Below, piece by piece: positions 48,458 to 50,195 of a stretch of DNA of 64,000 nt (positions within the stretch are counted from its first letter, which is position 1; the number at the start of each line of letters is the position of its first letter). This stretch comes from Halorutilales archaeon Cl-col2-1 (GTDB lineage: Archaea > Halobacteriota > Halobacteria > Halobacteriales > Afararchaeaceae): the NCBI GenBank assembly GCA_041891055.1, contig CP169074.1, forward strand, positions 416,001 through 480,000, read 5' to 3'. The position numbers and the translations under genes were made by a program. Below the pieces are notes generated by a model that had not been told where the DNA came from, did no database searches, and was given only the letters and a program-made list of their open reading frames with translations.

Positions 48458-48566
48458 GTAGTTAGAGACACGAGTCCACAGCCTCTTTGACATCCTCCCG
48501 CGCCTAAAGTCGCGGGAATCCCACCTTGGGATATTAGGGTTTGTAGTCTACCTGTTCTTGTGGCAT

Positions 48567-48612
48567 CACCAAATCTACGATTTGGTTAGCCTCCAGATAC
48601 CGCATCTGGAGA
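48567..48612. repeat. 46-bp twin-hairpin micro-insertion A
   Basis: ACCAAATC-TAC-GATTTGGT plus CTCCAGAT-ACCGC-ATCTGGAG; CAC repeated at the junction. Confidence 0.75.
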
Positions 48613-49881
48613 CACTATTCCAGCCGTAGTATCGAACAGATAGACTCCGGGCTGTGCCAAACAGCCGTTACTCATATCCTCCGAGGGAGGACTCTGAGTT
48701 ATCTCTGAACTTCGTTCAGAGGTTAACGAAGCTTTGCTTCGTGATATCTTTCTGCGTATGTTCACCGCACCGTTCACGTCTGCGTTCATCACCGTATCAC
48801 ACGAACTACAGACGTATAGACCACGCTCTACACGGTTGCTGTCGTCTATCTTACCACAACAACAACAGGTCTTTGACGTATTTTCCTCGTCCACTCGGTC
48901 TACCAAGATACCGTACTCTTCGGCTTTGTACTCAAGCAGACGGGTGAAACGGTTGAACTCCCAACCGTGTAACTTCTTGTTACCTGACTTACCCCAGCTA
49001 CGACTCTCTCTGTCTTCGTCCTCTCGTATATCGCTCAAGTCACCTACCGCGATAGTTCCGACACCTTTCTCTACACATCGCTCTACGATGTGGCGAGACA
49101 ACGTGTGAAGGAAGTGGTCTTTCCTACGAGAGAGCTTACGACGCGCGCGTAACGCTCTTTTTGAAGGTCCGTCTTCACCTTCCGTCTGGTACTCTTCCCG
49201 CGTGAAGTAGTGTTTGTCCTGCTTGAGCCGGTTGCCGGGGTAGAGTTCTGCGTCACCGTCTTCGTAGGCTATAGCGACGTAGTTTTTTATTCCGAGGTCG
49301 ATACCCGCTACGTCGTCACCGGGAGCTTCTTCAACGGGAATTTCTTTCTTACAGACGATATGGACTTCCCATCTGTCTCCGTTCCACACCGCTCGTACTT
49401 GCTGTACGTTCTCGACTTCTACGTCTGGACGAGTCTCGTACTCCACGAGGATGTAGTCGCTACGACTCCCTTTTAGGTTCCAGCCTTTGGAGAGTCGTAG
49501 ACGGTTGTACTCGTCGTCGTGCTTGATGCCGCGTTTCTTCCATGTAACGGTAGAGCGTGGGTGGTCGTCGCCACGTTTTCTGTAGCCAGGGGGATTGTTT
49601 TCGTTGTCGGAGTTGTACCAACCGTTGAACGCCTCAGAAAGCTCTTCAAGAACTCTCTGACTGGACTGACTATGTAAGTCCTTGTAGCGTTCGTGGTCTT
49701 TCAACTCCGACTTGAGTTCGCTTTCGTCAGGTATCTCACCGTCTTCGTCCCAGCGTTCTTGGATGTAGTGGCGACCAACGTTCCATAGTTTCGAGGCGGA
49801 AAACCCGCACTTGTCGAGGTCGTCTTTGACCTGACTATGATTGGCTATCTTGCCAACATAGGTGCGGGTTGTTTCCAACAC
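48586..49881 (-). CDS. tnpB: TnpB nuclease, C-terminus altered by insertions
   Basis: GTG start (LETTRTY), PPGYRK, GIDLG, TSKTC..CG..CSSC, NADVNGAVNI. Original stop probably 48534-48536. Confidence 0.92.
   Translation of the reverse strand: MLETTRTYVGKIANHSQVKDDLDKCGFSASKLWNVGRHYIQERWDEDGEIPDESELKSELKDHERYKDLHSQSSQRVLEELSEAFNGWYNSDNENNPPGYRKRGDDHPRSTVTWKKRGIKHDDEYNRLRLSKGWNLKGSRSDYILVEYETRPDVEVENVQQVRAVWNGDRWEVHIVCKKEIPVEEAPGDDVAGIDLGIKNYVAIAYEDGDAELYPGNRLKQDKHYFTREEYQTEGEDGPSKRALRARRKLSRRKDHFLHTLSRHIVERCVEKGVGTIAVGDLSDIREDEDRESRSWGKSGNKKLHGWEFNRFTRLLEYKAEEYGILVDRVDEENTSKTCCCCGKIDDSNRVERGLYVCSSCDTVMNADVNGAVNIRRKISRSKASLTSERSSEITQSPPSEDMSNGCLAQPGVYLFDTTAGIVSPDAVSGG
48700..48744. repeat. 45-bp twin-hairpin micro-insertion B
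   Basis: CTCTGAAC-TTC-GTTCAGAG plus ACGAAGC-TTT-GCTTCGT; TATCT repeated at the junction. Confidence 0.78.
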
Positions 49882-49976
49882 ATAATCGGTTATGTACCGT
49901 TCTATATTAAAGGAAACGAATATCCAAAACAGTCTGCACTTCATGGTTAGCTGAGTAGTTCGACGGATTCATCACC

Positions 49977-50027
49977 CGTCATCAGACGCGGAGCGTCTGA
50001 TTGGCTCGTAAATCTTCGATTTACGAA
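49977..50027. repeat. 51-bp twin-hairpin micro-insertion C
   Basis: ATCAGACGC-GGA-GCGTCTGAT plus TCGTAAATC-TTC-GATTTACGA; CG repeated at the junction. Confidence 0.82.
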
Positions 50028-50195
50028 CGCCTAAAGGCGGGTGTATTCTCCTGTACTATCTATAAACTGACGCCGCCGAACCGATCTATCTCATTTCTAA
50101 ACTGAGTTCTACCTCAGTCATACTCCAGTGTTTGAAGACCCCGCTTGGAGATAGCCTGCACAAATGCTTTAAATAGGTGATCTGTAGTCGGTTCC

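Follow-up and report, generated by a model that had tools for sequence, protein, structure and literature searches.

What are the three short, hairpin-bearing segments that lie within a single tnpB element of Halorutilales archaeon Cl-col2-1, and what could have placed them there? The element is of the IS1341 (tnpB-only) type and lies in the 64,000-nucleotide stretch of DNA analysed here (the window), which is C1:416001-480000 (contig CP169074.1) of a 2.06-Mb, four-contig genome (G000) that is 99.5% complete. The original prediction, made from the letters alone, held that the segments belong to a family of tiny, non-autonomous mobile units that are defined by their structure, that target IS605 ends and the omegaRNA region, and that are perhaps moved by an HUH enzyme. 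We find that the three segments are very probably separate insertions of a non-autonomous mobile family whose units are twin hairpins of 43–51 bp. To the best overall explanation, which combines such a mobile family with an HUH route as the leading guess for its movement, we give a probability of about 0.7. The segments are numbered here as inserts 1 to 3, and C2 denotes a second contig of the genome, which holds a paralog of the element.

48569..48617, plus strand: insert 1, a 49-nt twin-hairpin unit, delimited by a 49-nt gap against the C2 paralog
48700..48744, minus strand: insert 2, a twin-hairpin unit of 45 nt whose junction repeat is 5 nt long, delimited by the C2 paralog and by contigs without it
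49977..50027, minus strand: insert 3, a 51-nt twin-hairpin unit ending in GACG, delimited by metagenome contigs without it

The three segments are later insertions

That the three segments are later insertions is confirmed by the existence of empty sites. Alignment with insert-free homologs had been proposed as the check, and such homologs are found in the C2 paralog, in copies from another genome (G005) and in metagenome contigs. The paralog (C2:36455-37747; 89.2% amino-acid identity over 446 residues by tblastn) aligns without the 45-nt block at insert 2 and without the 49-nt block at insert 1, where one neighbouring substitution stands beside the gap. Three copies in G005, which are 73–75% identical, are shorter by the lengths of these same two inserts, as judged from match coordinates. 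Metagenome sequences from four runs, all of them assembled contigs and aligned at ≥85% likeness, skip exactly the 45 nt of insert 2 (48700-48744; 5 nt ambiguous) in four of four runs and exactly the 51 nt of insert 3 (49977-50027; 2 nt ambiguous) in two of the four, and these ambiguities of 5 and 2 nt equal the lengths of the junction repeats. In the area of insert 1 (48564-48628) the metagenome relatives have 19 other letters instead. At most 0.34 of sampled words were present in any run. The contigs represent related elements of other organisms; they are no sign that the strain is polymorphic, nor is the RNA run a sign of transcription. The sizes of 46, 45 and 51 bp first given for the inserts hold for the second and third, whereas for the first the alignment gives 49 nt (48569-48617).

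The anatomy of the inserts had been described as two hairpins of 7–9 bp each, mostly with 3-nt loops, separated by 4-nt spacers, and a scan for perfect hairpins agrees. Insert 1 (C1:464568-464611; window 48568-48611) has stems of 8+8 bp and loops of 3+5 nt, insert 2 (C1:464703-464742; window 48703-48742) stems of 8+7 bp and loops of 3+3 nt, and insert 3 (C1:465981-466026; window 49981-50026) stems of 9+9 bp and loops of 3+3 nt; the spacer is 4 nt in each and reads, on the minus strand, GCTA (TAGC on the plus strand), TAAC and GCCA, respectively. Folded as single-stranded DNA, each insert forms two hairpins (z = -5.21, -5.18 and -5.45 for inserts 1, 2 and 3), with none of 200 shuffles as good.

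Position of the inserts within the element

The remaining features of the element are these.

48487..50065, minus strand: whole IS1341-type (tnpB-only) element with its three inserts, ends placed by the limits of homology
48586..49944, minus strand: tnpB open reading frame (ORF), 452 aa, from the ORF list and tblastn paralogs
48496..48704, minus strand: omega-type guide RNA region, by match to Rfam sot0042 (RF02656)
50028..50043, minus strand: left-end hairpin (5' arm, 4-nt loop and first 4 nt of the 3' arm), by sequence and the C2 paralog
48496..48517, minus strand: right-end hairpin with a 7-bp stem and an 8-nt loop, uninterrupted, by sequence, the C2 paralog and the sot0042 match

The ends of the element, at ~50065 (left) and ~48487 (right), were placed at the limits of homology to the C2 paralog and to the copies found in G011, a genome from a different family of the order; at the right end, homology to the paralog ceases past a common terminal motif. 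The sot0042 match covers model positions 1–174 of 174 with 74 bits (E 1.4e-18), below the gathering score of 88; sot0042 is described as a sense overlapping transcript of IS1341-type tnpB genes (PMC4615843). A match to the Rfam HgcC model (17.3 bits, E 0.4) was dismissed as a chance overlap with the right-end hairpin. Comparison of the end-hairpin stems of the window element (48496-48517 and 50028-50043) with those of the paralog (C2:36400-37840) shows that most positions differ and that the changes are paired, that is, compensatory, while the bases surrounding both end hairpins are conserved.

Against the RF02656 model, insert 1 shows up as 50 extra nt in the apical loop of a model hairpin, and it alters the last residues of the TnpB frame. 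Insert 2 stands directly upstream of sot0042 model position 1 and is in frame, adding 15 residues near the C-terminus of TnpB; an identical copy occurs in a tnpB fragment at C1:335177-335216. The tnpB frame is unbroken despite both inserts, according to the ORF list. Insert 3 lies inside the 3' arm of the left-end hairpin, with the last 4 nt of that arm (49973-49976) on its far side; its removal leaves flanks that pair into a hairpin of 8 bp with a 4-nt loop, which resembles the unbroken left-end hairpin of the C2 paralog at the same position.

These data also bear on the opposite reading, in which the segments are native end or guide-RNA hairpins of the element that were lost in some copies. 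Hairpins are indeed native features of IS200/IS605 ends and omega RNAs, and the direction of change at a 194-nt array elsewhere in the genome (gain in G000 or loss in its sister species G001; see below) needs an outgroup. However, the Rfam model, the C2 paralog, the three G005 copies and the metagenome relatives are all without the segments, the removal of insert 3 restores an 8-bp hairpin, and near-identical units recur in unrelated contexts. Contradicted as it already is by the empty alleles, we regard this reading as barely credible.

A genome-wide family of twin hairpins

The inserts belong to a large family. A scan of the genome gave 393 perfect hairpins, 117 arrays of 2–9 adjacent hairpins and 183–185 adjacent pairs. 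Measured against third-order Markov genomes, hairpins with a 3-nt loop are in excess for stems of 8 bp (139 observed, 49 expected; ~3-fold) and above all of 9 bp (141 against 10.3; ~14-fold) but not of 10 bp (3 against 4.7), and the excess is confined to stems of 7–9 bp; counts for 4- and 5-nt loops are near expectation. Perfect 8-bp stems number 285 against 65 expected, whereas those with one mismatch barely exceed expectation (1362 against 1262), and decay products are therefore few. The 5' arm has the consensus TCGNAAATC and is closed by C-G. As had been predicted, the members share an architecture but little sequence: this is a family defined by structure, with 137 different stems among the hairpins in arrays.

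The unit is a dimer of two different hairpins arranged head-to-head, with 2–5 nt between them. In its commonest type the order is T, hairpin A, GCCA, hairpin B, GACG, so that each hairpin has a CGT(C/T) tag on the outside and a GCC(A) tail on the inside, and the commonest spacer overall is GCCA, GCC or GC. Every inserted unit with a resolved empty site is a dimer, and those of the GCCA type have their tags outside; the inverted ends of units amount to these CGT/ACG-type tags of 3–4 nt alone. The tag feature holds for about half of the hairpin family: 189 of the 393 hairpins have a tag (ACGT, CGTC or CGTT) immediately beyond the stem on one side or both, compared with ~22% of random sites, and both tag and tail flank 83 of the 393, compared with 2.8% of random sites.

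Variation is greatest in the loops. Where two twins agree in stems and spacer, their loops differ in 29 of 116 comparisons (for example C1:13759 versus C1:1421114). Four of the 116 are exact inversions such as GTA/TAC or AAA/TTT, which look like single hairpins flipped, although one of them is a single-base change and two are the same event; loop flip-flop as a hallmark of the family is therefore suggestive at most.

Dispersal and junctions

Mobility is indicated by both dispersal and filled and empty alleles, and here the predicted small mobile units are well borne out. Identical twins occur at unrelated loci, and among similar twin pairs both flanks are unrelated in 42 of 85. Within repeated DNA of the genome, a scan that read gaps inside BLAST alignments found 26 filled/empty pairs with differences of 40–55 nt, representing 16 distinct empty sites; single insertions measure 43–51 nt, and one 97-nt case is two units. 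At C1:259789-259982, upstream of an isocitrate/isopropylmalate dehydrogenase gene, G000 has a 194-nt array of four different twin units, the whole of which is missing from the sister species G001 between flanks that are 94–96% identical in this two-genome comparison. A separate observation concerns another tnpB element of the window, element 1: a place with a 48-nt twin unit at C1:256127 has its empty-site counterpart (72% identical) at window ~11180 (C1:427180), in a repeat upstream of that element.

The junctions follow a loose rule. In the orientation of the unit, the landing site is a C-purine dinucleotide, which the unit follows, and the unit ends with the same 1–5 nt. The ends that match the target are mostly ACG or ACA and elsewhere ATA, AGC or AAG, and the junction repeats vary in sequence as well as in length (CG, ACA, AACG, AGATA, GC, AAG). 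Because the 3' end of a unit repeats the last 1–5 nt of its target, there is no duplication of fixed length, and the junction repeats are compatible with an absence of duplication combined with an element end that matches the target. Each unit end recreates the landing site, and this explains nesting and tandem arrays. On C1, 29 units are in forward and 26 in reverse orientation, and no replichore pattern of orientation was found on this contig, where GC skew is weak.

Where the units sit

The original prediction had the units targeting IS605 ends and the omegaRNA region. Enrichment near tnpB is real, and inserts 1 and 2 do lie at the sot0042 region, but the targeting is not exclusive. Of the 117 arrays, 45 are no more than 500 bp from one of the 32 tnpB loci, compared with 3.3% of random positions (~12-fold); 25 of these 32 loci have family hairpins inside them or within 400 bp, and 119 of the 393 hairpins fall in the 2.9% of the genome at tnpB loci. 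Over the same distance no family hairpins were found inside or around the C2 paralog, nor at tnpB element 1 (0 inside or within 400 bp), which had correctly been described as free of inserts.

In the only tnpA-bearing element of the IS200/IS605 group in the genome (C1:979417-979597), one unit splits the GC-rich left-end hairpin and itself holds a 97-nt block of two further units; a hairpin array lies 50 bp downstream of the genome's only tnpA gene (C1:979038-979397). G011 has the same insertion sequence (IS) family as the window, with 36 of 36 left-end bases identical to window 50030-50065; this identity across two families of the order suggests a recent horizontal spread of the IS element. 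Four derivatives consisting of left end and right end, at four loci of G011 and without tnpB by match coordinates, carry a different unit, which sits in the left-end hairpin at a distance of two bases from the site of insert 3. One right-end hairpin in G011 is split twice. One of the splitting units, at the matching position, shares 88% identity with insert 3 and shows compensatory changes in its hairpin A.

Units also occur well away from these elements. The same four units (43–51 nt) recur in each of four copies of a gene for a DDE transposase (PF01609), situated near C1:368.7 kb, 1016.1 kb and 1299.4 kb and near C2:71.5 kb, whereas a fifth copy (C1:304610-305461, 283 aa) has none; the four inserts common to these copies imply that a broken copy still multiplied. 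Large arrays sit between ordinary genes (Iso_dh, ABC_membrane, F420_oxidored), and only 33 of the 117 arrays lie mostly within ORFs of at least 150 aa, although such ORFs make up 86% of C1. The insertion point is inside a perfect hairpin of at least 6 bp in 2 of 16 empty alleles, compared with 6% of control positions, and strict hairpin targeting was on this count rejected as a general rule. A preference for IS200/IS605 ends that is strong but not exclusive is supported by these results.

Distribution across Halobacteria

A pattern for one hairpin type was used to survey 201 Halobacteria genomes. It matched 71 sites in G000, 56 in the sister species G001 and 0–20 in each of the other 199, and the type is present in 153 of the 201; a reversed control pattern matched three genomes, once each. 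Several contigs of G001 (C39:1-71, C42:1-55, C44:1-30, C31:1-55) begin or end inside hairpin repeats, which seem to interrupt short-read assembly; counts from draft genomes are therefore likely too low. In G205, a genome negative for the Y1 domain discussed below, twins of the form tag, hairpin, TGATCA, hairpin, tag stand at a fixed distance from another conserved hairpin; they lie within a larger repeat, between whose copies the first twin hairpin varies. A collection of plasmids gave no match for insert 3 with its flanks (76 nt) or for a 166-nt array, short queries that may miss the E-value limit.

What moves the units?

By analogy with REP and BIME units, which are thought to be handled by an HUH route in trans, our leading guess, which we advance tentatively, is that an HUH (Y1) enzyme acting in trans may move the units. 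A unit would travel as folded single-stranded DNA, and a Y1 transposase supplied in trans would cut and join next to the hairpins. Several traits are compatible with such a route, namely the definition of units by hairpins, the lack of a fixed duplication and the building of arrays. Y1 is present in both of the genomes that are richest in copies, and the hairpin array 50 bp downstream of the only tnpA gene also speaks for this route.

A number of results nevertheless weigh against an HUH enzyme. The Y1 domain (PF01797) is present in 11 of the 15 genomes with at least 10 hairpin copies, against 137 of all 201 genomes. The median number of hairpin matches is 2 in Y1-positive genomes (n = 137), 11 of which have ≥10, and 1 in Y1-negative genomes (n = 64), of which four have ≥10 (20, 14, 12 and 11 copies). 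A one-sided Mann–Whitney test of Y1 presence against copy number gives p = 0.064 without correction for kinship; since kin are not independent, this value overstates the support. The copies in G205 may moreover be passengers of the larger repeat, which makes the co-occurrence test weak in both directions. With the IS200/IS605 model the single Y1 protein of G000 reaches 159.7 bits, and with the RAYT model NF047646 (cut-off 80) it reaches 26.3 bits; by these scores it is an ordinary IS200/IS605 TnpA and not a RAYT, and with the RAYT model and a single PF01797 gene to consider, the genome yielded no RAYT. The end hairpins native to the element are rich in GC (CACCC-type), whereas the stems of the units are of the AATC type. 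Units begin one base ahead of hairpin A, which would leave no room for an internal left guide such as IS608 uses. Finally, the junction repeats (1–5 nt) vary in both length and sequence. The HUH or RAYT-like link proposed at the outset is not supported, the co-occurrence of Y1 with copy number being weak at the p value given and a RAYT not having been found.

Two of these points, the hairpin types and the missing guide, bear equally on the idea that the units are minimal PATEs, that is, fused left- and right-end hairpins of some IS200/IS605 element that are moved by its TnpA. Such an origin would account for two hairpins per unit, for a size equal to two hairpins plus short linkers and for the lack of a fixed duplication. 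However, wherever the two kinds can be separated in this genome, the GC-rich (CACCC-type) hairpins are the native ones and the AATC-type hairpins are secondary inserts, and on the IS608 model the unit is without space for a left guide. We therefore consider a minimal PATE highly improbable. An IS607-type serine recombinase was ruled out as the mover, there being 0 matches to PF00239 in the 99.5% complete genome.

A transposase-free route is almost as likely as an HUH enzyme, and is thus a serious, if minority, possibility. Here template switching in replication, or templated break repair, would spread the units: a 3' end halted at a few matching bases (CG, ACG, ACA or similar) would anneal to those same bases beside a unit at another place, one unit would be copied up to the next short match, and the strand would then return. 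Junction repeats that range over 1–5 nt and several sequences agree with this, as does modular swapping, to which two inserts with a common hairpin A and unrelated hairpins B point. That loops are the most variable part (29 of 116 comparisons) while stems remain perfect across 137 variants also favours it, as do the want of a clear link to Y1 and of a serine recombinase in the genome. Template switching has been reported to create and maintain hairpins (PNAS 2022, PMC8794818), and the bacterial CGTC-tagged REPs are likewise described as being without a dedicated transposase (PMC3733652). Against this, the boundaries of GCCA-type units (T before hairpin A, GACG at the end) are constant over independent events in two genomes, the moving piece is nearly always exactly one dimer, and the stem consensus is kept across 153 of the 201 genomes. 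Identical units at unrelated and distant loci are a further difficulty, as copying would need switching between those loci. Taken together, the constant boundaries and the identical units at distant loci fit a defined mobile unit better, whereas variable junctions, hairpin swapping, diverse but perfect stems and fast-changing loops fit template switching about as well as they fit an enzyme cut.

It is also conceivable, though doubtful, that a dedicated enzyme which is neither Y1 nor a serine recombinase moves the units, perhaps a host or viral nuclease or integrase that reads small hairpins. The stems are sharply limited to 7–9 bp with 3-nt loops, and such a limit looks like a fit to a protein. 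The weak Y1 association also leans this way, and the SMR-A elements of Haloquadratum, whose mobilisation has been called enigmatic, behave alike (PMC3119063). On the other side, no candidate gene was seen among the neighbours of the large arrays, the neighbours alone being inspected and no systematic gene-association search made.

Consequences for the host elements

Under the mobile-family reading, one unit has split the left-end hairpin of the window element, one has entered a loop of the guide-RNA scaffold and one sits in frame at the 5' edge of the RNA. Such insertions need not kill the host element. That the G011 derivatives have multiplied argues that an element can go on spreading with a unit in its left-end hairpin. 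The landing spots are functionally important, comprising the end hairpins read by TnpA and the guide-RNA scaffold of TnpB, and the insertions are therefore natural experiments on tolerance.

Could the units instead serve the host as a means of disabling IS200/IS605 elements and their derivatives? A host-defence role was suggested for SMR-A in Haloquadratum by its authors (PMC3119063), and both the strong preference for IS ends and the fact that left-end hairpins, right-end hairpins and guide-RNA scaffold are all hit fit with it. But the four unit-bearing derivatives of G011 lie at four loci and so kept multiplying after the hit. The tnpB frame of the window stays open, and the outer part of the left-end stem (6 bp) still pairs around insert 3 in the minimum-free-energy fold (3.6% ensemble frequency). 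Many units, moreover, are in intergenic DNA of the host. We judge a defence function unlikely.

At 43–51 bp the units are among the smallest for which insertion can be cleanly demonstrated, with filled and empty alleles available. A genus with 56–71 matches to one hairpin pattern in ~2 Mb is a good system in which to find the mover. On the practical side, the repeats break assemblies and likely confuse the annotation of tnpB, omega RNAs and IS ends.

Comparison with known systems

In the haloarchaeal literature, we found comparable units described only by Dyall-Smith et al. (2011; PMC3119063), who reported the SMR-A elements of Haloquadratum walsbyi (HqIRS42, HqIRS43 and HqIRS55). The original prediction had anticipated a resemblance to short mobile repeats of other haloarchaea, and in behaviour SMR-A is indeed alike. 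As described there, SMR-A elements measure ~110 bp, bear conspicuous inverted terminal repeats, are >95% alike within a type, and insert without a transposase and without target duplication into the palindromes of IS605 elements and PATEs, by a mobilisation termed 'enigmatic'. The units described here are similarly haloarchaeal, transposase-free and frequent, seem to make no regular target duplication and prefer transposons of the IS605 type, PATEs and near-terminal palindromes; insertion into palindromes of this kind is seen in the split end hairpins of the window, of the tnpA-bearing element and of G011. In contrast, they measure 43–51 nt and not ~110 bp, are inverted over 3–4 nt alone where SMR-A has prominent inverted terminal repeats, and are diverse, with 137 stems. 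By this comparison, which is one of descriptions and not of sequences, the units fail three of five features of SMR-A membership.

A second parallel is provided by the CGTC-tagged REP dimers of five bacterial phyla (Di Nocera et al., 2013; PMC3733652), in an account where the word 'archaea' occurs only in the reference list. Those repeats likewise have perfect stems of 8–9 bp with an unpaired CGTC-like tag and, opposite it, a CCA-like tail; most form head-to-head dimers, in which the two hairpins often differ, some lie inside other palindromes or genes, and they have no associated transposase gene. They differ in their loops (4–5 nt, compared with 3 nt here) and in that clusters are rare in bacteria whereas arrays are common here. 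It is a speculative but attractive idea that our units are archaeal counterparts in kind of these dimers, spreading without a dedicated transposase through copying during replication or break repair at any place where a few bases match their short ends. If true, this would reveal a self-propagating DNA structure common to Bacteria and Archaea, one which reshapes TnpB guide RNAs and IS ends as well and yet does not stop the elements concerned.

Other systems are more distant. REP/BIME units and REPINs, which go with RAYT transposases, are also defined by hairpins, form dimers and arrays and lie mostly outside genes; in our case a GTAG consensus tag is missing and the search for a RAYT gave none, and, unlike the arms of a REPIN, a unit's two hairpins do not pair with one another. 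PATEs are comparable in being non-coding, in having hairpins and in having no long inverted repeats, and G011 holds true PATE-like left-end plus right-end derivatives of the window IS family. However, no relation exists between the stems of the units and the end hairpins native to the window element, to its paralog and to the tnpA-bearing element; PATEs and IS ends are what the units insert into, not what they derive from. The units do not fit the MITE class in that their junction repeat varies over 1–5 nt in place of a target duplication of fixed length. The twin-hairpin units link two puzzles hitherto considered separately, the 'enigmatic' small mobile repeats of Haloquadratum and the transposase-less CGTC-tagged REPs of bacteria: in behaviour they are closest to SMR-A, and in anatomy they are closest to the CGTC-tagged REP dimers.

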